A DNA stretch of 64,000 bases, taken from the NCBI GenBank assembly GCA_001724265.1, contig MEDY01000065.1:1-64000 (forward strand). The letters are read 5' to 3'. The stretch comes from Rhizaria sp. SCN 62-66. Lineage: Eukaryota. This document shows, one piece after another, positions 7,743 through 47,281 of the stretch. The notes under the pieces were generated by a model. The model had not been told where the DNA came from and ran no database searches. It worked only from the letters and a program-made list of their open reading frames with translations. Position numbers and translations under genes: made by a program. Positions within the stretch are counted from its first letter, which is position 1; every line of letters begins with the position of its first letter.

Positions 7743-9628
<1,886 letters not shown>

Positions 9629-11973: not shown

Positions 11974-13729
11974 ATGTCACAATTTGACGTTGCAACTTTT
12001 GCTTTGGATATAGATGCAGGAGAGGCTTCCACATCTCCTGGGGATGGTAGCCCTCCAAACAGCCCGCGCCCATCGCGCCCCGATGTTGATCCCGCCGTCA
12101 GCAACGTCGCTGCTGCCGCCCACTCCCCTGCGCATTTATCTTCAAGCTCACTCTGTGCACCCCGTGTTTTATCAAGTTTGGGCGGCGCTCCACGACTCCC
12201 AGCCTACCACCCTCCGTCATCCTCATCCGCTGCGGCCGCGGGCGCAGTGCTTGACATGCTCGCTGTCGACGTGGCATACGCAGCCGCGACCGCTGCTGCC
12301 GCCCTCGCGCTTGGCGGCCCACTCAGTCACATTGCTGTTCTCTTGTCAACAACGCAAGATTCTGACACAGGCGCGGTCCGGCTTGGTGCGAGCACTTTGG
12401 CGTCATCACTGGCGTCCGTCGCCTCCTCAGCGGCAACCTTCGCTGATACGTGCTTCAGAGCTGCCGCGCGTGCCGCTGCTGCAGCATCCACCACTGGCGT
12501 TGCACCACTAGAAGCCGCAGCAGAGGCGTATCTTGTTGCTGCAACTGCTGCGTTGCCTGCGCTCGCGTCCGCGCATAAACGACACATTGCGACAGTTTTG
12601 CCACCAGTTCATCGCGCCAACCGCAATGCGCACCACAACAACAGCAGCGGGGACAAGTCAGTCAGCATGTTTGCGGCTTTAGCAGCGTTGTGTTGTTGCC
12701 CTAGCACGCTAACTGTGCTGCATCGCGCGCTGCCTGTGGGTGTGTCGGCCGTGGTCCAGGCCTGCACCAGTGCAGTCGCGCAAGCCACAGCACATTCCGC
12801 GACGCAGTCGGTCACGCAACATGTCACGCAGTCCGTTCCGCAGCCTGGTGCGCAATCTGCAAACGGGCGCGCTGCGCTAACTATGGATGTAGCTGTGACA
12901 GTGGTGGACGCTGGGAGTCCGCGACAGCCGAGCTTTGCAGCCGTCCGGGCCCCAACAGACGGTCTCTGCAGCCATCTTCACAACACCAACGCCGAAAGTA
13001 GAGACACCCTAAACACAGGGAACGCATCGCATCGTGCGGGGCTTTGCGGCAGCGCCAGTGTTGGGCTCTGCGGCCGTGGTCCTAGCGGCCTCAGACACGA
13101 GCGATCCTGGTTGCCGCAGTGGCTGCAACCCTCATCCGATGACGCTGACGGCGTTGCGCTGTGCCGCGCTGTCGGTGTCGCAGCAAGCAAGCTAACTGCA
13201 GCATTTAGTGCCCCAGGAGCCGCCATGCGTGTAATCGAGCTACCACTGCGGCGCATGCCGACGCTTGAGCTGATGCTGCTGCGAGTTGCCGTCTTTGCTC
13301 CAGCTTTGTTGCTGACACCTTCCCAACCCATCAACGCTTCGAACTGTAGCTATCACAACAAGTTTAGTTCGGCCAGAGTTTCAAATGTAAGTAAGAACGA
13401 CGCAGCGCATACGCTTGCAATTGCAGCAGCTGCCCTGGCTGCGCGTGTGCGTCCTGCCTCCGTGCGGGCAACAGCTGTCTTATCGCGTGCTGCCGCAGTC
13501 GGCGCGCTTGTGGCCGCACAAGAAGCCGCAGCGTGGGCAACGCTCGCTCGCTCAGGCGCTGTTCCAGCGGCTGCACCGACGGTAGCGTCGGGCTGGGCTG
13601 CTGGATACGGTGCGCTGTTGCGCCTGAACGCACTCTCGAGCTCAAGCTTTATTGCGTCAAACAACAAGGCACCAGTACGGAGGCAGCGCAATGTGACACA
13701 GCAGCAGCAGCGGCAGCAGCAGCAACAAC

Positions 13730-13760
<31 letters not shown>

Positions 13761-16700
13761 GCAGCAACAACAGCAACAACAGCAACGGTACAGTGCTGGA
13801 GATGTAACAGTAGGAACGCAAGTCCAACAGCAGCATGCAAGCGCAAGTGTAATGACAGTACATGTGCCTCTTTCTGCTGGAACACCTGTGGCACAAAGAG
13901 TCGATACATGTATCAAAGATGTCAGTCTTAACACAATCAACACTAGCGCAGCTGCAGCTGCTCTTGATATATCGCGTGCAGCAAATATGACAGCAAATAG
14001 TGGTGTAATTTTCCGTGATGGCAGCCAACCTGCTGTTAGCAGTATCGACATTAACAATGACGAGTTCTGCGCGAGTCACAGTTTAAACAACAGTGACTAG
14101 TCTGATTGCGAGCCACACACTCCGCCCGCGGCCGCTGTGCTGCGTCTGCTTGCAAGCAAGCAAGCCACTGCCACGCCAAGAACTACAGCGGGAGTCACAA
14201 CGGCAAACACTGCGACAAGCTCAACAAATTCCGCGTCAAGCTCTAGCAGTAGTTTGACAGCGACGGCGCCCACTGCTGTCCCGCTACTACGTCTACCAAG
14301 CAACAACAGCCAAGATCGTTCTGCGCCACGCCTGCCTGTGACGCCGCGTCCGCCAGTGCTTACACCCGCAGCCGCAGCTGCTGTTCTTGCTGCTAACGCT
14401 GCTACAGATGCCGCAGTAGCTGCAGCAACGGCTGCGCGCGCCGTTGAGGCAAACATTTCTGCTGTGCGCCAAGGCGCACGTGTTTGGCGACTGTGGGCGC
14501 AAGGCAGGATGGTTGAAAGCGTGGAAACAGTACTGTGTGGAGTTTTTAGGCAGAGGGCCTTTGTGTACAGCCAACCCCCGCTGCAGCCGCCTGTGCCACA
14601 ACCAGTTTCACAACAACAACGACAGCAACAACAGCTGCAGGCCGATGTTGGGCCCCCTTCTCGTGTATGTGCAGCAGCGCAAGCAGTACCGCATTCAAAT
14701 AAGAAAGTTGGTCGCGATATGATGGCACAAGACAAGCGTGCGCAGCAGCAAGAGCAGCGTCTTGCTGCTCTAGTGCAACAGCAGCAACAACATTATGCTA
14801 AGCCCATGCCTAAGCAGGAACAGCACGTTCAGGTTCATGGCATAAACGACAATGCATTTAAGAGTGCCGTCGGTGGTGGCATCTTACATCGCAAACCTGC
14901 ATTTGCCCACAGCCTACCTGGCGGAGCTAGCGGCAATATTAACGGCAGTGGTGCTGACCGAGCTGGCGAGAGTGTCGCCGACCGTCGTCGACGCTGGCGT
15001 GCGCACTTGGCAGAGGTACAACTCGAACGTGTTGCTGCAGTCGAAGAGGCTGTTGCAAAAGAGGCTGAGGCGCGTGCAAACGCAAACCTCCAGCGGCTTG
15101 AACCGGAGCAGAAGCAGCAACAGCAGTGCAAGAGTGTAAGTGTTGGTGATGGCGAGCTCTGGGGCGAGCGTGCGCTGGCTGGCGATCCAGATGGCTACCG
15201 CGTACAACGCGTAGCTCGCGCGCCATATGTCGGTCCCGTTCAGCCTGTTTCTGCCGCGTCAGAACAAGCTTGTGTAGACGCGATCGAAGGCGTGGTGGCC
15301 GCAGCAGTGCCAACTCTTGGCCTGAGCAGCGGCGGCAACAGCAGCAGTGCTCGCCCACCGCGACACCCGCAACACATGCTTGCGTCGTACTCAGCCGCCT
15401 CCGTCGCAGCTTCGGCAGCATATGATGCAGTCAACTGCGCAAGCGGCTTGATGTGTCCTGAATGTGGCGCTCGTGGCGGATCTGGAGCCGCAGCAGGTTA
15501 CGATTGTAGTAGTGGCAATGACTATCTTGACGGCGTTGCTGGGTGCCACTGCGGCGCGGGTGAGCGTGCAACAGTGCGCGTCGGCATGCCGTGTGAGTGT
15601 GGCGTTTGGCCGTGCTATTCAGAGCAATGGGCTGCAGTCGAGCAGGCAGAGGCTGCAGTTGAAGCGGCGCTAAAAAGGGCAAAGAGTCGGAGTGCGCACA
15701 ATCAAAACAATGCTTGTGAGAATATCAATGGCAAGGATCGCAACATTGTTGTCATTCGCGCCCGCCCCAGCGATTTAAACAGTGGTCACGATCAAAACAA
15801 CAATCGTGATAACAACAGAGATTCCCCGCAAGCGGTGGGTAATGGCAGTGGTGTTGGCAGTCACAAGAGTAATAAGAAGGGTGGACTCTTGTCACGGATC
15901 TTTGGCTGTGTCAACACGCCTGACGACGACGACGATGAAGAAGACGAGTTGGTTATGCCAGCAGAAGACGGCAATTTTATTGTTGATAGTCGCATTGCTG
16001 CGCGGCAAGAGCGCGTGCGGCAACGACAGCAAGAGCGTAGGCATCAACAGGAGCGCGCCGAGTCCAAGAAAAACAAGAAGAGCAATCAAGGCAACGACAA
16101 AGCGGGGGCTGCGGATGGCGTTGTGGGATCCAGTACACTTGCTGCGCAACATTGTGTGCACGTTGTTGGGCCAGGTGTTGCTGAACAGTCCTCGTGTACA
16201 CCTCGATCAAGCAGCGCCGTGAAGCGTGAACGAATGTGTCGTGTGCTGCTGTGCACCGACGCCGTTATTATGCTGGAGGCATAGCCCGCGGCAGTGAATG
16301 TGGCAAATGCAACAGGAGCTGTGACAGCAGCACGTCAAGCACTGATTGAGTCGTTGGGTCTCAGCAATACAGCTCCTGCTGCGAGTGTAAGTGCGTGTGC
16401 CATCGATGCACAGTGCGCTCCAAGCGCGCAGGGGAGCAAACTTTCAGCCAGTAGCAACTTCATAGAAGTTGCTGCAAGTGCATTTAACACCAATACTGAA
16501 GCGTGTGCAGGTGAAATGTTGATGTGGTCAGCTTCGGCATTGAATGACAAGAATGGATGTAGCGGTGCAGTGCGTGGTATGTTTATATGTTCATGGCTTC
16601 ACGAAGAAAATGTGCGCAAGATCACAATTAACAAATGTATCTGTGTTTTTGTAATAATATCCCTAAAACAGCTTGTTGATTCAAAAATAACTCATGTGCT

Positions 16701-18456
16701 CTTTCTTGATGTTTAGGTTATGCATCATTATGCGATGTTACGTTCATGCCATTGTGGTTGCCACCAGTAAACCCAGACAGGCCTATTTTTGGTCCACAAA
16801 GCCTACCGCCACTGCCCATTGCAGCTGGTGCTTTGCCTGCGCGCACACCATTGCATGTAGCCCCGTTTCCATGGACTGTGGGCACAGTGACAGTTTGTGC
16901 GCCACTGCACCCTGCGCCGTCACGAACACGACTCATCCCCGCAGTTGTGCTGACGCCAACCACACCTGCAGCTGCAGCTGCGCTCACCGGAGCAGCGGAC
17001 TATGATGCACACCGCACGCCACTGCCACCGCCTGCACTTGGCTCTGGTGCGGCAGTCGGCGCGTGGCCGGGCGCAATCGTGATGAACTTTGGCACGGTCA
17101 GGGAGCGCGACCGCTGGCTTCACAAGGCCCGCGCATTGCAACACGTACGTGTCGACTTAAAAAAAAAACACCAAATTTCTGAGTTTTAAATTGGTCTACG
17201 TCTTATAAGCTCTTGTTTGTGTACTTTTTTTTTGTTGTTTTCAGTACTTGAAGGTATACATTCCACGTGACTCAGACCTGGGTCGACCACTGTGTACGGA
17301 CGCGGTGACTTCATTTTCACTCAAAAAGATAGCTTCAGAGTCGCGCGTACAGTCACGCATTAGAGCTCAACAAATGACGACGCGGACAGAAGAGTCTGGT
17401 GTTACTGGAGTTGCGCCAGTTGCAGCTGTTGCTGCTAGTGCTGCCGTTATCGGTTCTGCAGTTGGCGACGCACGCACGGAATCTGTCATAGAACAGTGCA
17501 ATACGACTAAGAATCCTCTCAAAACTAGCTCTAGCATGTCAAGCGCACCTACACTGCCGCTGAGTGCCGCAAAAGCATTAGAGTCAAACGTGAACGGCAA
17601 CAGCACTGCGAGCGGCGGAAAATCCGCAAGTTCGTTTGAGGCTGCAAAAACTGACATGAGTTGCGCGGCTACGGTGCCTCTTGCTAGCAACGTTGCGCGT
17701 GACATTTCTGTTGACAGTAATGTTGCGCGCACAAGCAGTAGTTTATCCGCTGTGCCTGCCGAGGCAGTCACGAAGATGCCACAGTATCATAGCGTCGTCG
17801 CGCAGTCCTCCTTTGAAACCCTACCAGTCAACAACGACTCTGCACCTTCAGATCCCGCAACAACATCAGAAACAGCGTCTATAAACGGCAACGCTGGGGC
17901 TGTTAGTGGAGTCACAACAAGCTTCTAAGACGAGTTGCCTGCTGTAGCGCCAGCAGCGTCTGTAACCGCAGTATTGAGCATTGCTACAGTGCACAGAGAG
18001 TATGCGCCTCAGGAAAGAGGAGAAGAAGAAAAAGAAAAAGAAAAAGAAAAAGAAGAAGAAGAAGAAGAAGATGGCCGCATTCCTCTGCGCGCGCCCTCAT
18101 CAAGTCTTGTAGCTGCAACAACAAAGCTTGTTGTTACTGCCGCTGTTACAACTGACGTGTCAAATAATTCATATGTTGTCGCGAGTCATTGCGCTGACCA
18201 TGAGAGTGGTGCAACCGTTCATGCTTGTGGCGCACGCGCAGCACCCCGCTGTAGTCTGCGTGTATGCCCGCCAGGCGCGCTTCCGCTTGCTCCTGCTTGG
18301 GAGACCGCTGAGAGTGACTATGACGTTGACGCAGACGACGCTGATGTTGATGTGGCAAAAACCTCTGCGACCTCTGCCCACGAGAGCATTGCAACTGCTA
18401 ACACTAATAATGAAGATAAGCAAATGAACGCGGATAGCAGCAACTATGGCAATTGA
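11974..18456 (+). CDS. Large low-complexity protein with degenerate RhoGEF DH remnant and split PH domain; in-frame TAG at 14098 and 16282, in-frame TAA at 17926; introns 16577-16716 and 17145-17244
   Basis: ORFs 11959, 14137 and 16294 share one frame. Two GTAYGT...AG introns join 16746 and 17248 in frame. VIELPLRRMPTLELMLLRV resembles the DH motif LIxPVQRIPRYxLLL. RERMCRVLLCTDAVIML and IVMNFGTVRERDRWLHKA resemble PH beta2 and the C-terminal helix. The true end (17928 or 18456) and the start are uncertain. Confidence 0.6.
13699..13790 (+). repeat. CAG/CAA trinucleotide tract encoding poly-Gln
   Basis: (CAG)n(CAA)n run in frame within the DH-PH gene. Confidence 0.9.
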
Positions 18457-18832
18457 AAAGCAAAACTCACACTGCAAACCAGGACCGGAGCAGCAGCGAA
18501 CAGTGATTGAAAAATAGGTGGAGATAAATTTTGGTTTGATTTGTATATACCGTACGATTTGGTTACTAAAACCTCAGATAATACATTACCTACTACTTAA
18601 AAATACATATAGAAAAGTAAATACAGCAAAATCCACACAATGTAACCTTTGTTTTTCGAACATCTAACATAACAGACAAGGTGGTCCACGTTGGACGGCC
18701 GTGTACACCCTCATAATAAGTTCATCCTTCCGTATCCCTGACTCTCTACTTGTTCACTCACTCACTTTGTCACAGTCACTTGTCAACCACATATTCGCTC
18801 CGCTTGATTTGCTTTGCTAGCGAACAACGACT

Positions 18833-21800
18833 TTAAGCAGTGGCAACCTCGAGGTTGGTCATGAGCGCCTGCTGGAGCTCGCCATCGAGCTGGGCAGCAA
18901 TGGCCTCGACCTGGCCGGGGCAGAGCTGTCCGATGTGGAACACCCACTGGCGCAACAACGCGCGGTTATTAACACTGAGCTCGCTGCTGGCGAAGTAGTT
19001 AGCGACGGCGAAGATGATCTGCGGCATGGCATCGGCGCAGTGCGAGGGCGCGGCCTCCCACAGCTTGGGCAGGTACGGAATCGTGTTGTTCATCTCCTGC
19101 CAGTCATCGCGGAAGGCCAAGTTGGGCAGCAGAGCCGCCATCACAGCGTCCAGAGGCACCAGCGCGGACTGCAGCGCAGTGATCTTGACCAGAGCCGCGA
19201 CGGCGTTGTCGGCGGCGCCGGCGGCCTGGACAATGAGGTCCTTACGGTCCGGGGTCGCCGCGGGCACGGCAAGGGCGCGCGGGATAATGCCGGCGATGTT
19301 GGCCACAGCCTCAGTGAGCTGCTGCGGGGTGATGTAGTTGGTGGCGGTGTTGATGACGATGACGCCGATAAGGTACGCAGCGTGACGCTGCATGTCCAGC
19401 GACGCATCGTTGAGGAATGTGAGGCCGAGGCGGACGAGCTCGAGGCCGTGCTCGTGCTGCTGCGGGCCGAGATGCTCGACGAGGTCAGCGATGGTGCCAA
19501 GAACACCGGTGCGGAAGTTGATGATACGGCGCGGGTCGGTGAACTCGGTCATGGGGCCGAAGATCTGGTTGAAGAACGGCAGAAGCTCGCCACCCATGCA
19601 GCGGACTAGTGCAGAGAGGAGGTTGCAGTAGGCCTCAATAACGGTGAGGTTGTTAGTGGAACCAATGTCGTTGTGAGCCTTGTCAACCTACAAAAGTCAA
19701 AGGAATAAAGAGCGAAGAATGAATTTAGATAGATGCAAGTGTGTGAGATTGTAATATCAACAACAAAAAATGGGCGCAAAAAAAATGACGCAAACAACCA
19801 CCAAAATAATAAATCAGTCGAAAACAAAGCATTATAGCCGCTGTTCGTTGTGAATGAATGTTGATTGATCCTACGTACCTGGCAGCCAGAATCCTCCTTA
19901 GCCATGTCGCCGAGTACGATGAAGAGATCGCGCAGCACCTGGCCCTCCTCCTCGTCCTCAGGGTCGTTCTCGGGGAGCATCGCCATGCCGTAGACGTCGA
20001 GCAGCAGCCCGTAGGTGCCCATTGCGGCGGCCACGACCGAGGGCTCAGTGTCGACGATGATGGTCTCGCACATGGCGTCGCGGATCGCGTCGACGAGCGA
20101 GGCGTGCGTCTCAGGCAGCGGCGTCACCGTGCCCTTGACCCACTTGTCCTCCAAGGGGTGGTTGTTGCGCAGCCACTCGACGAGAATGCCGAAGGTCTCG
20201 ACAATGACCGTGCGCAGCGGGGCGAAGGGCATGTGCATGATCTCGAGCGACGCGTTGAGCAGGTCCTCCAGGATATCGTTCTCAAACCCGTCGCCGAGCG
20301 AGGTGAGCGACTGCTGCACGAGACGGAACGCCTCGAGCTTGGCCTCGAGCGCGGGCACGTTGCAGCGCAGGTCGTCAGTGTCGAACGGAGTGTAGTCGTC
20401 GACAGCCTCGTCCTCGTTGCCCTCGCCGTCCTCGAGCGAGCCCGGCTTGGCGAGCTTCTTGATCGCCGACATCGCGGGGTCCGTGTCGGCCTCGTCGTCG
20501 TCGGAGCTCGAGTCAGAGAGGCCGGCAATGTTGCCCTCCTCCTCGTCGCCCTCGTCGATGTCGAAGCCGTCGGAAGAGTTGATCTGCGCCAGCGCCAGCT
20601 GCAGCATGGGCGTGACGAGCTCCTTCGGGGTGTTGGCGCCCCAGGCCTCGACGATCTTGCGCATGAACACAAACGAGAGGTCGTGCAGCGTCGAGTCGTC
20701 AATCGTGAAGCCCTCGATCACAAACTTGAAGAGAAGCGGGACGGAGTCGTCCCAGTTGACGACGCCGACGGCGGAGGCCATGTGGCCTATGCACTCGGTC
20801 GCGCGGGCGCGGATCGTGATGAACTCCTCCTCGTCACGCGTGAGCCACACGCGGACAATGGCCATCATGGGCGCAAAGTGGGGCAGGAAAGCCTTGCCCA
20901 TGACGTCGGCGACGGAGCGGAGCACGGAGATCATCATGACGTGCATCTCGAGGTTCGTGGTGGCGAACACGCGCTGCACCTCGCCGATGATGGCGTCGGC
21001 GTACGCGTTGAGATCCTCGCCGAGCTCGTTCGTGAAGGCCTCGAGCGCCATGCAGCACTTGCGGTGCACGAGCGAGTCCTCGGCCGGGTTGGCGAGGATG
21101 CTGAGCAGACGCTGCATGATTTCAGCGTGCATTGGCACCAGGATCGACGAAAGCGACTCGGCGTTGTTGCAGATCATGAGGCATGCGGCCGTGCGCACCG
21201 TCACCGACGGGTCCGAGAGGAGGCTGACGGCGTGGCGCGCAAGCTCGGCGGCGGCGCGGCCCTGCTCGTACTCGAGCATGACGTCCGTGCAGCCGTTGGA
21301 GAGGGAGGCGAGCAGCACGAGGCCGCCCTTGCGGTGGAGCTCGTGCTCCGAGATGAGGTACTGCATGATGCAGGGCAGGAACGCGGTAAACACCTGATCC
21401 TGCGGCAGCGTGGCCATCATCGGCATGATGAGGTCCAGCGCCATGGACTGCGGCGTCGTCTCCTGCTCCGAGTCGAAGACGTCGTGGGCGAACTCGACCA
21501 CGATCTGCGCGATCGTCTGTACCAGCGGGGCGGCGAGATTGAGGCGCGTGATGACGCCGGGGCGAGCGCGGAGGATCTGCACGCAGAGCGTGGCGGCCAT
21601 CGCGCGGTACCGCATGTCGGCCTCGGCGTCGACCATGAGCGTGTTCATAATGGTCCAGATCTGCGTCAGCGCCTCGTCCGTGATGGGGATCATGGGGCCC
21701 GAGGAGTTGTAGAAGACGGAGAAGACGGACATGAGCGAGTTGTCGTCGTTCTCCTCGATCAGCGTCGGCACGAGCGTGATGAGCGCGGCGACGACCTGGG

Positions 21801-22488
21801 TGATGAGGCCGATCTCGTCCGCCTCGAGGTAGCGCGAAAAGGCAATGTCGACACCCTTGATGGCGTAGTTGCGCACGCGCGGCTCCGTGGACGAGATGAG
21901 CTGCAGGCACGTGTTCTTGACCGTCGCGGCGTGGGGCTCGAGCGCAGAGGACGCGCGCTTGACGAGGCGGGTGAGCAGGAACATGCACGACTCCTGGACC
22001 TTGATGTCCGCCGAGGAAGTGCCCTGGAAGACGAAGGGAATGAGCTCGGGCCACTCGTCCTGGAGCTTGTTCTTCAAGTCGTGTTGCGCAATACTACTGA
22101 TGACGCCGACGGTGGAGTTGCGCACATTGCGGTTCTCCTCGATGGGCAGGCAAGAGAGCAGCGCAGAGCGGATCATACTGCGGAGGTCTGGGGTGAGGCG
22201 GGGCCAGTGCGTGCGCATGCGCTTGTGGAGGAGAATAGCCGAGAGCTGGCGCGTGTGAGCCGAGGGGGACTCGGTAAGCTGCTGCATCAGCGCGGGCACG
22301 CACGCGGGGGTCTCGATGAACTTACGCAGGATGCGCACGGCCTGAGCGAGGATGTCGTTGTCGGGCACAGCCATCATGCCGAGGACTTCGGCGAGCTGGG
22401 CGGCATCGGTCGGGAGCTGGACCTCGGCCTTCTTCACCTTGGTGCCCGTCTTCTTCTTCAGCCCAGAGGCCTTACGGCGAGGCGGCAT
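18833..22488 (-). CDS. IPO4: Importin-4/Kap123-like karyopherin beta; exons 22488-19879 and 19687-18833
   Basis: IBN_N start (VPDNDILAQAV...RQLSAILLHKRMRTHW), HEAT repeats, RARATECIGHMA and DNAVAAL. Intron GTACGT...TGTAG restores the frame. Stop TAA. Confidence 0.85.
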
Positions 22489-23978
22489 CGTGAAGCGCTA
22501 CGTAAGGAGCAAGTGAGCAAGTTGTGTTCGCGACGGAGTGGCGAGAGGGTTGCGGAGGTGACGGAAAAACATGAGTCTGAAACATAAAGGTGCGATCAAT
22601 CCGCAGAAATAATGTAACTAATGTAGATATTAGAAACGAGTGCCGCATGGGAACGATGTGCCATGTGTTCAGAGGCCTTAACGCTGGCGCAATAAGCGCA
22701 TGGCGTGAACAAGGACGGTGCTGTGACGGCAACTTTTGCGCGCCTCCTTGAGAACCAGTAGATAAAGCTCAAGCCTTCCTCAAAACAGCATATAAATTAA
22801 ACAGGTGTTATTTCGGCAATTTTCATACTGCATTAAAACACTGAAACTCCATTTCATGATGCACGCATGGCGCTGTAATCCAGCAAACAAGGCCCGCATT
22901 GCGGACCCCTTGCCGCAGTGCACACTGGGCGCGAGAGTCAGACCGGTGACTGTGAGCGCGCCGTGACAGAGACGTGGAGCGTAACCGAGCAATGTGAACA
23001 ATAGGAGAAGAGTAAGGAGTAAATAAAAAGAAAAATAGTGTTTTGTTGTTGGTAGATATTAAGTGTATTGTGTGAGAATGCGATTGCGGAGCTGCTGTCT
23101 GCTCTGAGAAATTGATTAGTACATTTTTGTACAATGCGGCGTTTAAAAGATAGGTAAAAGGTATTTTTGTTCTTTGCGGCTTTTTCGAGGGGTGTACAAG
23201 AACTGCACACTTCATGGAAAACTGTTTCTCGAGACAAACGAATTAATTGAGACAAAGAAGATCAAGATCACGATCACGAGGGAAAATAGCTTAGGTTGGT
23301 TTAGAGAAACCAAGGGTCGCTAACCCCCCTTCCGGGTTGCCCCTCTGCTTCTGCGCTGAGCTGAACTGAAACAACCACCGAGCGCCGGAGTAGTCGAGTC
23401 AGGGATGCTACATGTGTAGCGTTGGCGGCGAGAGGGTGGCAGTGCAGTGCAGGGCAGTGTGCGTAGTGGTTCGGAGTGATGATCGAGAGGATACGATAAG
23501 AAAGAGGGGTCGTGACCTAGGAGACGACTGCGTCACGTCTTGAGACGAAAAACGGACGAGACAGCAGTGCAGTGAAGGGCTACAGCTACGTTAAGTGACA
23601 GTTGTGGAGTGAAAGAAAACATCGTAGAAAAGCAGATCGCTGATCGACATTTGCACCCTCACACTCTCGCGCACTCACTCACCTACTCGCAAATGCATTT
23701 TACTCATACGAAACATACATTTGAAGAGCACTCGCGAGCGTTGTGAGAATTGAAACCAAAATGTGCGCGCGCAACCGCAGATAGGTTTGTCACCTATTGC
23801 AGATTCGCAACTGAAGACTGAAACTTAGCTGGCCGTCGGGAGTCAGGCAGACAGATAAAGCAAGCAAACATGCAGGCAGAAGTACACTTGTGTGCTTTCG
23901 TACGCAAGTGACTGACCAACTCTGCTGAGTGAATGAATTCCTGAATGTCGGGCTGCCTGACGGAGGTCGACGGCCCGC

Positions 23979-26609: not shown

Positions 26610-27619
26610 ATGAAGTCGCAGATTTTTCTCTTGCTGGCGTCGCTCGCCATTGCGCTTACGCAGTGTGGTACGTACTTTCTCTCGTCGGGTCCCACTTTCC
26701 TTGTCCCCTTTGCTTCGTCTTCTCCTACGCTGTCCCCTCGCCGCCCAAGCGCTTTTCACCTTTTCATTGCGCTTCCTTACGACTCCAACTCTACTCTTCT
26801 ATTGCTGACTACCTTTTTTTTACTGTGCTGTTCTTGTTTTGCTTCGTAATCTCCGTCCCACTTTCAGCGGCCATGTCCCTCAAGACTGAGGTGGAGGCCT
26901 TCCCCCCCGTTGTGTTCACCTACAACGTGACGGCCTGCGATGGCTGCAAGTTCGGCTGCCGCACCAAGTTCGACCGCGTTCACATCACCGAGCGCAAGGC
27001 GTGCCGTGCGGATTGCGACAAGCAGGAGTTCTGCGTTGTCTACTCTCCCGTCGAGACCAAGCCCGACCCTGTGTCTGTGTACACAGTCAACCCCGTTCTG
27101 GCTCGTGCGGCCCTCGGCGCCATCAGCTCTGGTGCCCTCAACGAGACTCAGCTTCTTGCTGCCAACAACAACGCTACCCAGGCCCTCATCAACCTCGTGA
27201 CTCCCGCCCCCAAGGAGTACGTCGGCGCTGAGGAGAAGCCCGCCGACGCGGCCACCTTCTTCAAGAAGCTCCAGCAGTACATCGAGTGGAAGACTGTCCA
27301 GGACCAGAAGGCCGACAACGTCACCGCCCCCGAGTACAAGGAGGAGGACGTCCTCCCCCAGATCCCCGTCGTGTGCGTCGAGTGCGTGCGCAAGGTGATG
27401 GGTCCCGGCGAGACCATCCTCGCCCACATCACCGACCTCCCCCGCCACAACCTCACTCTGCCCCCCCCCAAGAAGAACGAGACCACCCCCATCAGCAATG
27501 TCACTGAGGCCCCCGTTGCCGCTCCCCCCTCGGTCACCGTCCCCATTGACAACACCAAGCCTGCTGAGGGCACCACCAATTCCCCCATCATTGATGCCCC
27601 CGCCCTTAACAACTTCTAA
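26610..27619 (+). CDS. Secreted Cys-containing, Pro/Thr-rich glycoprotein of unknown family; exons 26610-26667 and 26868-27619
   Basis: Signal peptide MKSQIFLLLASLAIALTQCA; CDGC..C...C..DC....FC cluster and a CVEC motif; several NxT sequons; strong C-ending codon bias. Confidence 0.8.
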
Positions 27620-28343
27620 GTAACTTATCCGCGGATAAAGACTTGAAGTTTGGAAGTGGATGCTGATGGTGTGCGTGTGATAGTGTGTGTATATGTGTGG
27701 GTGATCCGTCGGTGATCACGAGATGTGAAAAGAAAGCCGCAGTACAACTCACCCCGTACCAGTGGCGATCTTCGGAAGTGCGCTCTTTCTTTTTGATAGC
27801 AACAACTACCTACCACCGCGAATACTCGTGCCCGTGTTTGTAGTGACTTTAGATAAGAGTAAATCGAGTGCGTATGAGCATGACAACGAAAGGCAAAGGC
27901 TTTTTACGTGCGTGTGCTTTGCTCCGCTGCCCCATCACTGTGCAGTGACTTTAACTGTGCACGATGCAATGGAGTGAGAATTGTTCGATGGTTTTAATAA
28001 CAACAAACTCGTCACATAACACACGAATGTCATTTTTTTGTCGTTCTAGTGCGGAATACATAATACAAAGCTTGAAAATCCAAAGCAAAGACCTCAAGTC
28101 CACTCAACTCATTCCTGTATTTTGTTTGACATGTGTTTGAATTATGGTTATATTGTTTATTGTCGGGCTCTTTTTGATAATTAAGACAACGGAGAGCATT
28201 GACGGCTCCTAAAGCCGAGATCTACTATGAATCACATGTTTTGTTTGCTCAAATCATCTTGCTTGAGCTCATCTCCTCCAACCAGTCCACGAAACCTCTG
28301 CACAACCTCTTGTGTGTGCCCGTGCCTGCTCCTGGTTGCTTAC

Positions 28344-37096: not shown

Positions 37097-37906
37097 CTCC
37101 GGAGAGGCTGCGCAAGAAAGGGACAACGTTGGCAAAAGCGCAAAATCAGATCGCAGAGAGTGTGAGAGGTGTGCAAAAGGGAGTTGTTAAGGCTTTCCAC
37201 TGGCTTGTCGGTGGGGTTGACCATCCAGATGCCAGTGCAGAACACAGGCAGGGCGTGCTTTGAATAGAAAACGAAAATTTGATCATAAGAGTAGATATGT
37301 CGAAACGTATTATAGCTGTGAACAAAGCGCACTGGATTTTTAAATGATGCAAAATCCTGTCGGAAAGATCGGCCGTTTTGAAAACGGTCGGGGTGGAGCC
37401 CACGGTCAGTAACGACCGCGAGAGGTCAACGCCGCTGGTTCTTCGCACATCTATACCGCACTAACGCGCCGCAGGTGTTGCACACGCTTTGTAATTTAGA
37501 TGTTTCGAGTGATTTTTTTTACTGTATTTTTACTCTCTGCGTCTAAGGCGTCTCTTTTGTGACGGTTATGTCTCAAACCAGGTGTCCCTCCGCCCTCCCT
37601 TTTAACCGTTCGCTCACCGCGTCCTTACCCTTTTTGCCACGCCGCTCCCTGCAGTCTCCCGTCCGGCCACCGGGTCATCAGCCTTGCCCTCTTGGCTGTC
37701 TTCCCTTTCCGCCGCCCCGCGCCTCCGTACCTAGGCCCGGAGTTCCGCCCCGCCCCGTTTCGCGTCCAGAGCTCGCACCGCAGCGGTCCCGTCCCTGCCT
37801 TGCTTCTCTCGCTCAGCCGCTCACAGAGACACCTCGTCTAGCACACTCGTCGCTTCACGCCGTTGCCGCAGCCCCCGTTGCTGCTGCCCGTTTCGCGCTC
37901 GTCCCG

Positions 37907-38801
37907 ATGCTGGCCCCCGTGCTGCTGGCAGCGCCAAGCCTGCTGCTGTACCGCGTCCCCAACGACATCTTCATCGCCTCCGCCGTCTGCCTGGGCTTCT
38001 ACATCGCCATCGTCGCGCTCCGCCTCGTGTACATGTCGGCGGAGAACCCACGGATGTGGCACCATGAGGAAACCGCGCGCGCCGCCTGGTCGATCCCGGT
38101 GCTCCGCGTGACGGCCATCCTGGCGCTCATCTGCGCGCTCTTCCTCATCGGCCGCGTCGACATCTCGCTCACGCGCTGGATGTTCAACCCCATGTCGCTC
38201 AACAAGGGCTCGTGGAACATTATCCGCGTTATGGTCTCGCTTGTGCTGCCTATCTGCGCCGCGCTCATCAACACGAACCCGGTGTTCCGCATCTTCTCGG
38301 CCTTCGCCTTCCCGGCGTTGGGCATGATGGACCTGCTTAGCCAGGTCGACATCGCCGGACAGATCTACTGCATCGACCAGGTACGGCGCTCGACTACGAC
38401 GCAGCGCGCGTTTCATCACGACTTGGTATAGCTCATCCTTTGTGTTTCGTTTTGTATCATTGATTGCCTCCTCGATATTTCACTTTATTCGCTCACATTC
38501 TTCTCTTGTTTCTTTTTGCTAATTTTTACTTTGCGTGCTCGCTAAACAGGGCACGTGTGCGGATAGCAACGGCCTGTCGACGTTGTACCTGTGGATGTAC
38601 CGCGACCTGGTCGGCATCATGCTTAACGTCTGCGGCACCACGCTCTCCTGGTACCTCTGGGGCTGGCTCGGCTTCTGCACCAACGAGATCTACATCCCGC
38701 GCTACGAGCACCGCGTGCTCACCGCGGAGCTCTCGGGCATGAAGCTCAAGAAGCGCAAGGTGCGCCGCCGCCTTGGTGACGGTGAATTTATTGACTGGTG
38801 A
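37907..38801 (+). CDS. Unknown multi-pass membrane protein; exons about 37907-38380 and 38550-38801
   Basis: GC3-rich codons, about 5-6 hydrophobic segments, in-frame intron GTACGG...AACAG. Start uncertain because the frame is open upstream to 37559. Stop TGA. Confidence 0.7.
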
Positions 38802-39539
38802 ACGGAAACAACACCACAAACAACAACATGTACACGATCATCTGCTTAAAGTGTACGTGTAGTACTAAGACGACTAACTTGCCTTTAAAATGAGGTTTCG
38901 TTGTTTGAAACCTAAGCCTAGGTGAAGCAAAAGGTCGCTGCAGGGCCATTATTGCCCCAAATACGCCCCTTTTTAAACTCTTAAGTTCTCTTCTTCTCTC
39001 GGTGTCGGTGGCAGTCAAGTCTGATTCACCAGCCGCGTGAGTTGTATATGAGTTTGTTTTGTCTTTAAGCTCAAGCAATAAAATATAAACTAGTAAGTCT
39101 TACAATATGATGTATAATCGTAAAATCAAACGTTTTTCATGTGGGTGGTCTTGATATACACTTAACTCAGCGCTCTTTGTTGTCGCGGTGCAGACGCTCA
39201 GCGAGCTGACAGGTCCGACCTACCGGCGGCTTCTCGAAACGTCAACTTGAAAAAAATATCACACATTGAAAAGTTTGGATACGAGCCATTTTACCCTCGC
39301 ATGATTGAAAATGACAAGCAATTTGCCTTGAATCTGTTCATACTTACCTCTTCTAAAAATATACTTCAAGATGTAACGTCTTGGTTGCGTAACAGGTACA
39401 CCAAAGCTTACCCCCTCTCAGCCGCTGACTCTCACGCATCTGACACTTGTCGTTTCCCTCTGCTCCACCGCTTCCTGTCCTAGAACAAGCAACCTCTCCC
39501 CAACATAGTAGCCCTGTGGTCGTCCCTCACTTTTCCACA

Positions 39540-42027
39540 ATGGCCTCCGTTGCTTCGTCTTCATCCTCCGCGTTGTCTGTGCACAACACAGCCTCCCGCG
39601 CACCAGTGGCGACCACTGTGTCGGTGAGCCCGGCAACGGCGAAGCTCGTCTCGCTCTCAAGCCGCCTTCTCCGCGAGATCAACGGCGAGCTTGACGCCTC
39701 TACGTCGACATCTGTGTCCGCGTCCGATTCCCCGAATGGCGTGAGCAGCTTTGCGGCGCGCCTCAAGACATTCGTCTGGAAGCGCAGCGCGATCTGGAGT
39801 CCCCGCGGCGGCGAGCTCTCTCTCCCGCCCAACGGCGCTGCCGCCGCTCTACACGCCGATGGCAGCGAGGTCGTCGCACTACCGTTTCCCGTGGCGGACC
39901 CGGCGGAGCTGGAGGCGATTCTGTCCGACTCCGAGGTCGTGGCTCGTATGCAAGCGGGCGTGAGCGCCGTGTCCCGCTCTGTGCTTCCGCTGCTGCAGCA
40001 GATCGACGCCGCATTCATCGCCATCACTAAGGAGCAGCAGGCGCGGCCCCGGCGCAGCGGCGCGACGGCGCAGCTTGCCGTGCCGCCCTCGACCTTCCAC
40101 ATCGGCCTCGCCTACCGTGCCATCAAGCAAGAGCTCAAGTACGTAATGTCACGACTTGAAGTGAAAATGACTTTCGTCGCCGCACTCGTCTTTCACTGAA
40201 TATATTTGTTTTAGCACATGTTTGTACCTTCATTATGTGTGATTCTCACAAATCAAGCCCACTTCTTACTTGTTTTCTCTTTTTCCTTCGCCTCTCTGCT
40301 CTGTGTCTCGCAGCGACTCAATCGAGAACTTCGGCAAGTGCCGCAACGAGTTCATCTCGTCGCTGCGCTGTCCATCCGCGCGCACTGAGGCCCGCGACGG
40401 CATGGCGGTGCTGTTCGAGCGCGTCGAAGACTGGTTCGGTCGCCTGGAGGCCCTCAGCAGCTTCTGCAAGCCGGACCCTGTCCCGGTGGCCCCCGTCGCG
40501 CTCGCCGCCTCGGTCCCCGGCCAGCCCGCCGCCGCGGCCGCGGCCGCGTACGGTCAACACGCGCACGGGCACGCCGCGGTGGGCGTGACCGAGTTCGTGG
40601 ACATGCTCGCGCCGGAGACGACGGCGGAGCACGAGGCGTTGGGCGTGCGCATCTCGCAGTGGGTGGACCAGGGCCGCTTCATGGTCAAGGTCGAGAACGT
40701 CGGCGCGCACCGCGTGCATCTCACCGACGGGCTCATCACCATGCCGCAGCGCCACGTCACCGCGATTTGCCGCGACTCGGTCGGCGCCGGGCGCCGCGGT
40801 CGCCGCGGGCACCGCGACGGGCACAACGGCAGCCGCGCTCGCGGGCCCAGCGGCGGCCGCGCTCGCGGCGGGCACCGCCACGGCCAACACAGCGACACTG
40901 ACAGTGACAGCGGCAGCAATGAAGGCCGCAGCGAGAGCGACAGGCATGACAACAGCAGCGACGATGAGGGCGACAACGACGACCTGGACGGGAAGAAGTG
41001 GCTGGACCTGGTGCACATCGACCGCGTGCTGACGCCCTTCCCGCAGCGCCAGGCCAACATCCGCGCGCGCATCGCGCAGGCGCAGCAGCGCCTCGCCGCG
41101 TTCCCGACCTTCCAGAGCACGCTGCGCGGCGTGTCCGACTCGGCGATCGTCACCGCGGCGGGCTACGCCGTCCCGCTGGCGGACGCCGCGGCCGTGCGCC
41201 GCGAGGAGGAGAGCTGGCGCGCGCAGCGGGAGCTCGACCTCGCGCAGGTCGCCACTGGTGCCGCCGAGATGGAGACGCCCGCGTTCATCTGCTTCGCCTT
41301 TGCGCCGTCGGGCGCCTCGGTCAACACGGCCGCCGCGGAGCTCGAGGCGCGCGAACAGCGCCGCCGCCGCGCGGCCGCCAAGGCCGCCGCCAAACAGACC
41401 GCTGGCGCGGAGGTTGGCGCTAAGTACAATGGCAGCGGCAAGCGCATCAAGGCCGCGACTGCGACAGACGGCGCCGGTGCGGCTGAGCCCGCGGCTGGCA
41501 AGGGCGCCGCAGTGCCTACCGGCAGCCTGCTCCGCGGCCCCGGCGCCAGCAGCAACGGCAATAGCGCTGACGTTGACTTCGGCGACGGCGACGGCGAGTT
41601 CGAGGGCGACGACGAGAACCGGGGGATTGTGCAGCTTGCCGGCCGCCGCACTCACGGCGGCAACGCCAAGGGCCTGGGCAACAGCAACCTCGCTGGCGCA
41701 GGCGTTGGTGTGAGCGGCGGGCTTGTCAAGCCCAAGCTCGACAACACTGCGACTGCAACTGGGGTGTTGTCGCAGGAGTCGCCCCGCAAGCGGTCGATCC
41801 GCGACACCTCCGACTCGGGCGCCGGCGACAGCGACGACGACGGCGACGGCAGCCTGAGTCGCAGCAGCGGGCGCAGCAGCGGCAGCAGCACTGCAATGAG
41901 TGATAGCGACGAAGCCGCGGTGGCCGCAGCAAACAACAACAACAACAGCAGCCGCAGCAGGAGCCGTGTTGCGCGGGAGCCGCGGCCGATCATGTCATCG
42001 AGCTTCAAGGTCCGCGTCATCGTCTAA
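39540..42027 (+). CDS. Unknown protein; exons about 39540-40138 and 40314-42027
   Basis: Two GC3-rich ORFs joined in frame by intron GTACGT...CGCAG (ELN|DSIENFGK). No family recognised. Stop TAA. Confidence 0.7.
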
Positions 42028-42406
42028 GCGTGTATTATGTGTAAGCACTGCATGTGCTTACATTGCAGATATGATAATCACAAAGTACAGGTAACAATAG
42101 CAGCGTGTTACTCTGTAACAACATGCAACATGCAAATTTTGCTTTGAACGATTGCATGCGCACAAGTGTATGAATTAACTTGATAAGCATCGGGGGAAAG
42201 AAGAACAGTAGCAAATGTATTGACAAAGAAGGTCGACGCAGAATAAGTTCGCGCCGATAAAAATAAACGTAAATGAAACTCAATTCAGCTAAACATACCA
42301 CACTGTAGGTTAAATAAACCTCCCTCAGTCTGACGAACAGTCAGGATAACGGCACTGCATTGCTGCTCCGTATTGCCTCGCTCACCGATACTCGTGGGCA
42401 CCTCAC

Positions 42407-45400
42407 TCACTCGGCGACGTCGTCGTCGGTCTCCTCCCTGATCTTGTGGAGCCCCGAGCGCACGACGAGCTCGTGCAGGCGCCGCTGCGAGGCCGAGCTG
42501 CGGCCCGCCTTAAGCGCCGCCAGCGGGCTCGCGCCAGGCGCCAGCGCCAGAGGGGCGGAGATGATGGGTGCCACGCTGGAGCCGGAGCCTGAGTGGGCGT
42601 GTCCTGGCGGCGCAAGGTGGTGCCCGTAGCCGTGGCCGTGGCTGTGGCCGTGGCCGGACGGCGACGCGCCGGCGCTGCCGCCGGGGCGCGAGGGCAGACT
42701 GCCGCCGCGGGGCCGCGCGGGGGCGCTGCAGTCGCCGAGACTGCGCCTGCTCGTCACGTCGTCGTCGTCGTCGTCGTCGCCGTAGCCGTTGTCGTCGCCG
42801 TCATCGTAATCGTTGTTGTCGCCCGAGGAAGAGCACTCGCCGCCGTCGTCGCCGTCGTTATAGGCGCCGAGGCTGTGAGAGTGCGAGCGCTGGTTGTGGT
42901 AGCTGTCCACTTCGTCGTGGTACTCGTAGTCGCCGTAGGGGTCGTACGCGTCGCCGCCGCCGCCGACGCCGCCGCCGCCGCCCGCACCCAGGATCCCGCT
43001 GCCGCCGCAGTCGATGTCGTAGTATGAGTCCAGCGCGGCGCGGGAGCGCGACGAGTGCAGACTCGGCGGCCGCGGCAGGCGGGCGAAGGCCTCGGCGGCC
43101 GGGTCCGTCGGCTGCGAGGACGACTGCTGCAACGACTGCAGCTGCTGCTGGGACTGAGACTGAGACAGGGACTGTTGAGGCTGGTGTTGGAGTTGCGTGT
43201 ACTGAGGGGCCGCGTCGGTGAAGCTTGCCGGCGCCGCCGTGGTCACAGGGCCTGTCGCAGCGCCAATTGCAAAGACTGAGACTGTGGAAGGGCTGGATAG
43301 CGGCAAGGGCACAGTCGCGGGCTCCGTCGATGCGGAGGTCACGGTGACGGTAAACGCTGCCACTGACGCTGGCGCAGGCGCGAGAGACGCGGGAATGTTA
43401 ATGTCACTGCCAAAACTGGCACTGCCAGCGTTGACGTCAGAGTGTGTCACGCCACGACTGGTTGAGTTGTAGTGAATTGCACCGGGAGACAGCGTGGCCA
43501 AGCCTGCGACCAACGCGGTGACCGCTTTCGTGGTTGGGGACAAGACGGCAGCGAGAGACACAGCAGAGGATGTGGGCGCAGCAGTGGTGATACTGGTACT
43601 GCTGGGCACCTAAGGCTGTGGTGGTGGCTGCGACTGGGACTGGGCCTGTGAGCCGCTGTTGCTGATGATTGTGGTACCAAAAGACGACGGAGCCGCCTAC
43701 AACTGTTGCGGCTTAGCAGCATCGCTAGCACTCGCAGGTGTACTGACTGCAGGCTTCGTACCATCGGACTTCGCAACAGCAGCAAGAGCAGCAGCAGCAG
43801 CAGCAGCCGTAGCAGCCGTAGCAGCCGCCGTAGCAGCGGCGTCCGCGCTACTATTAGTGCTGCCGTCAGTGATGTCGTGGTCCTTGTTGTTGTTATCGTT
43901 GTTGCTGTCCGCGTGGTCGCGCGCGAGGTCCGGGCAGCGCATCGCGCGCCTCATGGCCGCCGCGGCCTCGTCCGCAGGCAGGTAGCGCACCACCTCAAGC
44001 AGCCAGCGGCCGACGGCCTCGGAGTCGACGCCCGCGGCCGCCGCGGCCGAGGACGCGGCGCGCGCCGCAAGCACGAGGCTGCTGGGGCTAGCGCCGAGCC
44101 CGGGGCCCGCGCCGGAGGCCGAGTCCTTGCCCTCGCGCCCGCGGCGCCGGCTGCGGCCGCTCTTGCCGCTCTTGCGCCTGCGCCGAGACCCGTCGCCGTT
44201 GTCGCTGCTATCGCTATCATACACGTCATATTCACTGCTGCTGACCTTGCTGTTGCTGCCGCCGTCAACGACACCTGCGCTCTCGGCAGAGTTGCTGTTG
44301 GCAGTGGCTGCGCCAACGCTCGCGTCAGGGTTGTTGTCGTTCTTGTTGGAGTCCGAGACCTGCTCGTACACAGCCATCTTGGGGTTGTCGACCGCGGGCG
44401 GCGCCGAAGGGAACTCAAGCCGCCGGCCACCGGAGCCGAAGAGAAAGCGCAGCAGCGCGAAGTACGACGGCCGCAGCAGCAGCACGGGCCACGTGAGGTA
44501 GGCCGTCAGCATCACACCCGAGGAGATGGCGAAGAGCAGCTCGGGGAAGAGTCTCGGCGTGCGGGGCAGCCACGGCACTGCCGACAGCGGCGTGCGCACG
44601 AACCCGCGGCCGGCCTTGACCGCGGCGGAGGCCGCAGCAGTCGCGGCGGCCACGGCTGGGGAGGACGCGGACGCAGCGCGCGCGGCGGCAAAGGTGGCCG
44701 CGGCGGCGCGCGCCCCGGCGGGCGTGGCGCCCCAGCGCGCAAAGCACATGGCCTTGAGGCAGTGCGAGGCGGAGAAAAGCGCGAGCTCAATGCGGCGCTC
44801 CTTCTTCTCGAACAGCACGGCCGCCAGCGCGGAGAGCCCCACAGACAGCGGCATGGTAAGGTGATGGAAGCTCAGCGCGTGCAGCCGCGATGATAGCCAC
44901 AGGCGCGGCGCCGCGCCCAGGGATGACGCGACGGCAGCGGCGGCCGCAGCGGCGGCGTGCGCGTTGGGCGGCTGCGCGAGCGCGCGCGCGGGGGCCGGCG
45001 CGACGCCGCGCGCGAGCGCGGTGATGACCCCGCGCACAGCGCAGGCGGCGGCGTAAGCGCCCACGGTCATGGTGCCGAAGAAGAGCGAAGAGCGTGCGAT
45101 GTTGAGCAGCAGCGACTTGAGCGCGGCCGTGATCGCGGCGCGGCGGTCCTTGGCGCGCGCCAGCCCGCGCGCGCGGAACACGAGCAGCGGGATAAGGTAC
45201 ACGGGCAGGTACGTCTTAAGCGCGGTCTTGAGCACCGAGGGGATCTGCTCCAGGTGCCCGCGCACGCAGCTGTGCGGGTTGTTGGCGTGCAGAACCTGGC
45301 ACGCAAGCGAGTGGCGGTCGTGCAGGCTGTACAGCTGCGGCTGGTTCTTGGTGGCGCGGAAGGCGTTGGCCACGCGCACCAGGTCGTCAGGCAGCAGCGA

Positions 45401-47281
45401 TGGGACCAGCGACGCGCACGGCACCGGCGGCGGGTTGTTGGCCTAAGAAAACGAGTAAAAAACAAAAAGAATGGAAGATGTGAGGGTAAAACTCGACTTG
45501 GAGCAATAACACAATAAGATAACAGAACAACACAAAATTTCGCGTACCTGACTGTGGACAGCGCACGCGCTCTCGAACGTGGCGGGCAGCATGTATGGCG
45601 CAGGGAGCGTCGCCGCCGCGCCAGCAGAGGTCGCCGTGGCAGCAGCGACGGCCGCCGTCGCCGCCGCAGTGGCGGCCGAGACCACCTCAGTGCCTCCGCT
45701 CGTGGACGTGGACGTGCTGACGACGGTGCCTGCGAGCGTGAGCGGCGAGGTCACGAACGTGGTGCCGAAGGTACGCGCCAGGTCGCGCTCCAGCATCAGC
45801 GCGTCGCGATCGCGGAACGCGGCCTCCGCGGCCGCGCCGGCGCCGCTCGCGGCCGCAGTCGCCGTCACGGCGGCCGCGCCGGCCGCACCACCCGCAGCGC
45901 CCGCGTCGGCGAGGGTGGGGTTGAGCAGAGGGATGCCCGGCGCGGTCTGCCAGCCGTTGACGACTGGCACGCGGCGCGCAAGCAGCAGCGGCGCCGTGGC
46001 CGCGGCCGGAGGCCCGCCCGCCGCGACGGGCGGCACAAACGCGCTCGTCTTGCTCAGCGTGAACGAGACCAGCGGCGGCAGCGCGCGGCCGGCGCCCGCG
46101 GCGACCGCGGCGGCGTTAGCGGCGGCGGACCCGGCCGCGGGCGCGCGCGGGCCGGGGACGGTGCCGGAGTGGATGTAGGCCAGCACGGGCAGCGAGCCGG
46201 AGCGGGAGCCGGTGTTGTTGTCGAGGAAGGCCGCGTAGCTGGGGTCGAGCCGCTCGCGCCGAAAGACCCACGTCCACGTGATGTGCGCGGTGCAGAGCGC
46301 GAAAAGCGCCGAGTCGGCGTGCGGCACCTCGGGCACGAGCCCATAGAGGCGCGCACAACGCACGAGCACCTCGGCGGCGCGGACCACGAGGAACACAGCG
46401 ACGTCGAGCCGGGACGAGCGCGGGAGACAGAGGATCGCCAGGAAGCCGGCGACGGATCCCGCCATGAGCGAGTGCACCGGGTGGTGCCGCACGAAGCCGC
46501 CCTTGTTGTGGCCGTGGCGCGAGCGATGCTTGCTGTTGCGGACGCGGCGGCGAAGCGCGGCGCGGCGGCGGCGGCGGCGCGCGGTGGCCTCGTCCTCACC
46601 GTCAACAGCGGCAGCGTCGCAGTCGCCGTCGGCGTCGGCCTTGGCGTCCGCGTCGGTGCTGTTGTACTCATTGTCGGGCTCGGTGCGGTCGAGCAGACTC
46701 ATGACGCCCTCGAACACGGCCAGCAGCGCGGCCAGGAAGCAGCCGTACCGGCCCGGCATCACGATAAACTTAGAAAAGTTGCTCTTGTCGAGCAGGATGC
46801 GCAGGATCACGCCAGGATTGCCGCCCGAGCGCAGCAGCGAAGGTACGAGCGCGAGCGCCAGCTTGAGGCCCGCCGCGATGGCGAAGCCCTTGCCGGCGCG
46901 CCGCAGGAAGCGGGCCAGCGCGCGGCGTAGCGCGGACATAGCGTTGTGAAGCTGCGCGCGGGATGGAGGAGGAAACGCGGAAGAGTGTGGCGTAGCAGCG
47001 GACGAGCTCGAGCTCGAACTATGGCTCGCGCCAGAAGCAGGGGAAGTGTCAGAGCCCGGAGAGTTGTTGACTGTGGGACTCGAGCTTGGACTGGATGCTT
47101 CGGCGGCAGCGCTGGCGGCGCGGGCATCGTCATCAGTGTCCGAGGCCGAGGTTGCAGAAGCTGAGGAAGAGGTTGAGGTCGAGGCCGAGACGCCAGAGCG
47201 CGCGCGCGCTGAGATGATGTAGGGGAGCTGGCTGAGACGGCGGCCGTAGCTCTGCCAGCGCGTGAGGCCGACTAAGTCCAT
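42407..47281 (-). CDS. TMEM135: TMEM135-like (Tim17/PXMP4 superfamily) membrane protein with long disordered C-terminal tail containing two in-frame TAG codons (43697-43699, 43610-43612); intron 45547-45443
   Basis: DSALFALCTAHITWTWVFRRERLDPSYAAFL, CQVLH...C, KTYLPVYLIPLLVFR, RSSLF and FEKKERRIELALF. The 400-aa downstream ORF has coding-type codon use, no ATG, and is in the same frame. Stop TGA. Confidence 0.8.

Follow-up and report, generated by a model that had tools for sequence, protein, structure and literature searches.

In-frame UAG codons in two genes of a GC-rich wastewater eukaryote point to a possible UAG-only change of the nuclear genetic code

We examined the meaning of the codon UAG in a 64,000-nucleotide (nt) stretch of contig MEDY01000065.1 from Rhizaria sp. 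SCN 62-66, hereafter the window, with positions counted from its first letter. Four isolated in-frame TAGs are present in two otherwise stop-free frames, gene A on the + strand, an orphan, and gene B on the - strand, which codes for a membrane protein. Among the 18 interpretable gene ends of the window, ten are TAA, eight are TGA and none is TAG. On balance, we think that UAG is translated in this organism and has been dropped as a terminator, and all tests that could be run within the window agree with UAG being translated and with UAA and UGA terminating. A preliminary description of this DNA had already proposed UAG as a sense codon. That proposal gains from the absence of TAG from the gene ends and from coding sequence past all four TAGs, and it loses from the rarity of the codon, the lack of a conserved site and an amino acid that the window does not fix.

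The gene A TAGs lie on the + strand at 14098..14100 (TAG 1, context AGTGAC TAG TCTGAT) and 16282..16284 (TAG 2, context GAGGCA TAG CCCGCG). Those of gene B lie on the - strand at 43697..43699 (TAG 3, context CAGTTG TAG GCGGCT) and 43610..43612 (TAG 4, context CAGCCT TAG GTGCCC), the latter falling on the Q phase of an (X-Q)n run. All four are where the preliminary description had placed them, in two genes with no frameshifts. TAA and TGA are absent from the coding frames of both genes, and the other five frames of the same segments contain 4–39 stops per 400–727 codons. A cross-run check of the DNA covered the two gene A TAGs: TAG 14098 is kept in an independent DNA contig of run X3 (13809-15824, 0 differences), and TAG 16282 is kept in run X4, where a contig over 15011-16359 shows six differences, all at other positions. 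No gene model of the window has an in-frame TAA or TGA, and a scan that read TAG, TAA and TGA as sense in turn found no other coding frame with an internal stop unexplained by an intron or a 5' leader. Several further TAGs were considered as internal codons and set aside. The importin open reading frame (ORF) that ends on TAG 19606 is explained by an RNA-supported intron at 19688-19878 (-), TAG 38429 lies inside a GTACGG intron, and TAG 7665 lies upstream of the METAP2 start.

The + frame of gene A runs from 11926 to 16716 and is broken only by TAG 14098 and TAG 16282, the TAG at 16714 being an intron acceptor. Gene A has ~1,690 codons of this frame with no TAA or TGA, and the other frames of its two long segments contain 7–39 stops per 707–727 codons. 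The main exon (11974..16576, +), whose 5' limit is uncertain, encodes an orphan protein predicted to be disordered and has a guanine-plus-cytosine (GC) content at third codon positions (GC3) of ~0.5. It is followed by a 140-nt intron (16577..16716, +, GTATGT..TTTAG), seen spliced in an RNA contig of run X5, and by a last exon (16717..17189, +) in which the TAG-bearing frame continues after splicing for 157 codons to the TAA at 17187. The X5 contig joins 16576 to 16717; the joint lies past TAG 16282 and leaves the frame unchanged. Past TAG 16282 the frame is open for 97 codons and for these 157 codons after the splice, and by our own arithmetic it is very unlikely that 254 codons would stay open by chance at the stop density of the neighbouring frames (~1–7%). 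A stop at 16282 would lie ~290 nt upstream of the exon junction, a position that would normally mark a transcript for decay. In GC content at the three codon positions (GC1/2/3), both the stretch of 727 codons from one TAG to the next and the 97 codons after TAG 16282 resemble the part before TAG 14098. Separate genes starting right behind these TAGs are unlikely, because the first in-frame ATG is 137 codons past TAG 14098 and 78 codons past TAG 16282.

Gene B has a frame of ~1,590 codons (47497..42407, -) with no TAA or TGA, broken by TAGs at 45443, 43697 and 43610. The TAG at 45443, the third of the frame, is the end of an intron and not a codon. Exon 1 of the membrane protein (45548..47281, -) is separated from exon 2 (42407..45442, -) by an intron of 105 nt predicted from the sequence (45443..45547, -, GTACGC..CTTAG, T fraction 0.50). 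Exon 2 consists of 581 codons, TAG 3, 28 codons, TAG 4 and a tail of 400 codons that ends on the TGA at 42407. The 581 codons ahead of TAG 43697 gave a weak match to TMEM135, and the 429 codons past this TAG contain no in-frame ATG. Under a codon model trained on the other genes of the window (the training genes), the 400-codon tail scored 0.38 bits per codon; both earlier parts scored 0.44, and the other five frames of the tail lay between -0.44 and -1.20. Its GC1/2/3 was.66/.59/.82, compared with.68/.59/.85 ahead of the TAGs. The tail protein is 100% identical in three cluster members from other assemblies, none of which crosses the TAGs. A homologue search with the TAG region of gene B returned only the window's own tail, and metagenome_contigs contained no match to a pattern of 29 letters around TAG 43697 in which the codon itself was left open.

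The gene ends carry the other half of the evidence. The preliminary description had tallied ten TAA, seven TGA and no TAG among 17 ends; the zero for TAG stood, and the recount raised the TGA ends to eight and the total to 18. If TAG made up 0.21 of terminators, which is its share of stop trinucleotides in the window, none in 18 would be expected with P = 0.015, and this value runs from 0.054 to 0.002 across TAG shares of 0.15–0.30. TAA and TGA do terminate, because METAP2, ATG8 and ATG12 end exactly at the C-terminus of their families. Query residues 1–172 for METAP2 align to the last residue of human MetAP2, and the last exon matches its C-terminus residue for residue (..SRGFDY versus ..SRGDDY) before the TAA at 9626..9628 (+, ..SRGFDY*). 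The ATG8 profile aligns over positions 1–104 of 104 and ends on the last residue before the TAA at 10473..10475 (-, ..NTFG*), as does the APG12 profile (2–87 of 87) before the TGA of ATG12 at 48799..48801 (+, ..QAWG*). The three end-to-end matches bear out the earlier claim that both codons are real stops here. A purine follows 16 of the 18 true stops (G 11, A 5), with TAA G the commonest combination, and we take the purine to be a strong termination context. The bases after the TAGs at 14098, 16282, 43697 and 43610 are T, C, G and G, with no common context.

If this is right, UAG would have lost its role as a terminator and would be read as an amino acid, with UAA and UGA ending all genes, a UAG-only change of the Iotanema type. 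Ribosomes would insert an amino acid at each of the four TAGs and go on. Gene A would then give a protein of ~1,690 residues, and gene B a membrane protein of ~1,590 residues that ends in a long disordered tail. The decoder might be a transfer RNA (tRNA) whose anticodon is CUA, for which a mutated tRNA-Gln is the simplest candidate, or it might be a near-cognate tRNA-Gln, and its presumed partner would be an eRF1 with lost or weakened recognition of UAG. Glutamine is perhaps the meaning of UAG, to judge from the codon's surroundings. TAG 43610 occupies the Q position of the run SQ-AQ-SQ-SQ-PP-PQ-P[TAG], where Q is found in five of the six preceding X-Q dipeptides, and TAG 43697 comes after ..KPQQL. 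In the training genes CAG occurs 239 times, CAA 47 times and TAG not once; CAG, the commonest glutamine codon, is one transition from TAG. The earlier best guess of glutamine is accordingly still the simplest and a reasonable one, and the window does not fix the amino acid. The change would have to be young, or the decoding inefficient, because TAG is used so seldom, and only in sequence that is disordered and evolves fast. More tentatively, a GC-rich protist lineage from wastewater, not sampled before, may here show a reassignment that is still early or part-way. UAG might in that event be gone from the gene ends while its capture as a sense codon (probably for glutamine, from CAG by C>T) is just starting, and weakly constrained genes might so far tolerate it only in their disordered, fast-evolving segments.

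A number of observations weigh against translation of UAG. TAG occurs only four times in ~15,800 stop-to-stop codons of the gene models and is confined to 2 of 18 genes, a restriction with a chance of ~0.002 (own arithmetic) if TAGs were spread by gene length. There is no TAG in ~12,500 codons of the other 16 genes, a count that covers 64 kb of the genome. All four sites fall in disordered, orphan or low-complexity sequence. None lies in a Pfam domain or at a conserved position, and no homologues were found to align; the preliminary description had likewise noted that no site is a conserved position. With TAG read as Q, gene A had no homologues among proteins of 843–2,685 amino acids, and a HMMER search of 1.84 billion representatives returned only the window's own 715-amino-acid ORF. 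The middle part of gene A is predicted to be disordered (Atlas model, predicted local distance difference test score 0.38). The demonstrated RNA cover of gene A lies on both sides of its TAGs. ARAGORN found no tRNA genes in the 64-kb window. The Q phase of TAG 43610, the place of TAG 43697 after ..KPQQL and the closeness of CAG to TAG would hold under plain CAG>TAG nonsense mutation too. Finally, a C>T change at 11980 in the X4 strain turns CAA, the third codon of gene A in its first-ATG model, into TAA. This TAA may fall in a 5' intron or an untranslated region, or gene A could be dispensable. The start at 11974 given in the preliminary description is doubtful: with a GTACG donor at 11839 and, at its other end, an ATATAG that resembles an acceptor and ends at 12013, the stretch looks like a 5' intron, and the true start of gene A is probably not 11974.

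The explanation that we weigh most heavily against translation of UAG keeps the standard code and has both genes recently truncated by a CAG>TAG-type nonsense mutation, after which their untranslated tails gained a second TAG. The products would be young pseudogenes or shortened working genes, and the membrane domains of gene B do all lie before TAG 43697. We regard truncation as unlikely, and several facts speak for it. The TAGs come in pairs, in only two genes; decay that sets in once a gene has its first nonsense mutation would also leave two stops per gene, and this counts against a translated UAG. All TAG sites are in weakly constrained, disordered sequence, and TAG is the likeliest nonsense product in both genes, its share, calculated from each gene's own codon usage, being 0.38 for gene A and 0.68 for gene B. 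With these shares, random nonsense mutation would give only TAG lesions with P = 0.067, and four of four being TAG is only weakly surprising under it. Gene A is weakly constrained, because the X4 differences listed for it comprise six synonymous, six non-synonymous and one nonsense change (the TAA at codon 3 of the first-ATG model), whereas those listed for METAP2, the importin and g23979 are synonymous in 7/7 cases; four ATG8 changes lying 39–48 letters from a contig end were excluded from this tally. Yet truncation would require two independent recent events within 64 kb, and the supposedly neutral, repeat-rich tails have no frameshift and no TAA or TGA over ~2.6 kb in gene A and ~1.3 kb in gene B. 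The gene B tail keeps its codon bias in full, its protein does not vary among the three cluster members from other assemblies, and the intron past TAG 16282 is still spliced in a frame-preserving way. The hallmarks of decay would be mixed lesions, lost codon bias and lost expression, whereas here the lesions are TAG only, the bias is kept and spliced RNA is present. The stronger case against decay lies in the absence of frameshifts, TAA and TGA together with the retained codon bias and frame-preserving splicing, rather than in the argument that all lesions are TAG. Truncation also leaves the 0/18 TAG terminators unexplained.

The same gap is left by an account in which the code is standard and the TAGs are removed in the RNA, through editing or through unrecognised in-frame introns at 14005-14100, 16219-16284 and 43610-43747, which we consider improbable. 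A GT..TAG segment of 96, 66 or 138 nt, each a multiple of 3, can indeed enclose each TAG, and the TAGs at 16714 and 45443 of the same frames really are intron acceptors. The candidate segments, however, have GC contents of 0.45–0.59 and T fractions of 0.19–0.27, against T fractions of 0.32–0.50 in eight measured introns (five supported by spliced RNA contigs and three read from sequence), and their donors are GTAATT, GTGAAG and GTCAGT where the measured ones are GTACG in seven of eight cases and GTATG in one. The sole GTACG near the gene B TAGs, at 43761, would make an intron of 152 nt, which is not divisible by 3 and would break the frame for the 400-codon tail. Among the joints listed in gene A for the two RNA runs none is of this kind, and five real introns of the window were seen. 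These points weaken the case for removal in the RNA. Gene-specific or leaky readthrough by a near-cognate tRNA under the standard code, with the 0/18 TAG ends a sampling accident, strikes us as similarly improbable. It would fit the great rarity of TAG and its restriction to two genes, and at P = 0.015–0.05 for TAG shares of 0.21–0.15 the absence of TAG ends is not overwhelming. Known cases of programmed readthrough have a single stop, set in a defined context or followed by a structure, and the extension is short. As in those cases, translation here would pass UAG into a C-terminal extension; unlike them, each gene has two TAGs, the contexts differ (T, C, G and G at the +4 position), no structure is seen and the extensions are very long. 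In the 120 nt from each TAG we found no unusually stable RNA structure (z = +1.36, +0.43, -0.52 and -0.39). Neither two successive readthroughs in one gene nor extensions as long as 430 to ~980 codons resemble the known programmed cases. An assembly or sequencing artefact is very improbable: the window does come from a metagenome, perhaps that of run X1, but TAGs 14098 and 16282 recur in the X3 and X4 contigs from other samples and studies, and the neighbouring conserved genes are intact.

The closest known counterpart to a translated UAG with UAA and UGA as stops is the nuclear code of Iotanema spirale, in which UAG = Gln and UAA and UGA are stops (PMC5304391). According to that account, 204 UAG codons are found in 126 genes, 22 of 28 hyperconserved UAG sites are Gln with read support, and UAA is the commonest stop (104/119). 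The window resembles I. spirale in having in-frame UAG, in never using UAG as a terminator, in having UAA as the commonest stop (10/18 here) and in that glutamine is plausible. It differs in being from a GC-rich wastewater organism and in that the amino acid is not fixed. A difference that again tells against translation of UAG here is the far lower density, with four UAGs in 2/18 genes and no conserved sites. The rhizarian exLh has UAG = Leu with UAA kept as a stop (PMC5304391), Scotinosphaera has UAG = Ser, and UAG-only changes are reported for several phyllopharyngean ciliates and Protocruzia tuzeti (PMC11687900). Amoeboaphelidium protococcarum is placed under UAR = Gln in the same source (PMC11687900). 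The window shares with exLh, Scotinosphaera, the phyllopharyngeans and P. tuzeti the decoupled meanings of UAG and UAA in a nuclear genome. Unlike the window, the exLh, Scotinosphaera and ciliate cases rest on transcriptome- or genome-wide evidence, and some of them involve other amino acids. A non-exhaustive literature search found no wastewater eukaryote with a UAG-only code.

Nuclear codes in which UAG and UAA differ in meaning are described for a handful of lineages (PMC5304391, PMC11687900), and each new split code bears on how eRF1 and tRNAs separate UAG from UAA and on how reassignment starts. If true, the present case would add to the known, rare set of UAG-only codes, possibly at an unusually early stage. 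A TAG that is gone from gene ends and yet extremely rare within genes would be nearer the starting point than the described cases, and the order of events (loss of the UAG stop, change of eRF1, gain of a tRNA(CUA)) could then be examined directly. There is also a practical side. A gene caller that assumes the standard code splits these genes. Protein databases carry 715- and 279–384-amino-acid fragments as separate proteins, and eukaryotic bins from wastewater metagenomes would be mis-annotated.

Gene A stands apart from its surroundings in other respects. Its deviant codon usage shows in a GC3 of ~0.5, compared with 0.75–0.9 in its neighbours. The stretch recurs almost whole in bioreactor and wastewater metagenome assemblies from several studies and is partly present in two RNA libraries. 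X4 and the polyA RNA run X9 have a 1-nt deletion in an A run at 17159, which moves the last ~10 codons into a frame that ends on a TAA at 17206, and the extreme C-terminus of the protein varies between strains. One X5 contig skips 733 nt (12178>12912). We rejected an intron here, as the skipped segment has the ends TG..GC and a 4-letter overlap (TGGG); the skip is probably template switching or an assembly artefact, and possibly a deletion variant. We also suspected a PH-like domain that would span both TAG 16282 and the intron, and dropped it when a Pfam search with E allowed up to 10 returned no match. Between gene A and the importin, at 17990-18080, lies a long purine-rich simple repeat (GA/GAA-like) that reads as EEKEKEKEKEEEEEE or poly-K depending on the frame, and the X5 contigs appear to be cut at this repeat.

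The window as a whole is GC-rich nuclear DNA (GC 0.51–0.75 per 4 kb), and its ~19 genes carry a small number of short introns. From matches in Pfam and PDB we identified METAP2, ATG8, an importin-4/Kap123-like protein, an M14 carboxypeptidase and a CFAP43-like WD40 protein, together with ATG12, a histidyl-tRNA synthetase, an AAA ATPase, PIG-F and Tctex-1. The importin aligned with a JGI protein at 55% identity, and a search for relatives' DNA with this alignment led to no locus in metagenome_contigs or genome_contigs. Comparisons of METAP2 and the importin with PDB and the Atlas gave no useful placement of the lineage. A giant open frame of 2,384 codons at 3-7154 (-) runs off the start of the window, with a GC3 of 0.81 and no Pfam match; the TAG-holding + strand ORFs over the same segment are antisense frames of it. 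ATG8 (10473-10789, -) ends exactly on its conjugation glycine (..NTFG*), for which cleavage by ATG4 would be unneeded for exposure, and it has by far the highest contig depth, 196, in run X5. Run X5 is RNA, as its contigs are spliced.

Five introns are backed by spliced X5 contigs, one of the five also by X9. Besides that of gene A, RNA support exists for 8586-9109 (+), 10790-11213 (-), 19688-19878 (-, in the importin) and 26668-26867 (+). Further introns lie at 51687-51841, 53582-53696 (-) and, with a GTACG donor, 38381-38549. The introns of the window are T-rich, 105–524 nt long and end in YAG. Their 5' splice site is very uniform, G|GTACG, with further GTACG sites at 38381 and 11839, and this uniformity could aid both the placement of the lineage and the training of gene finders.

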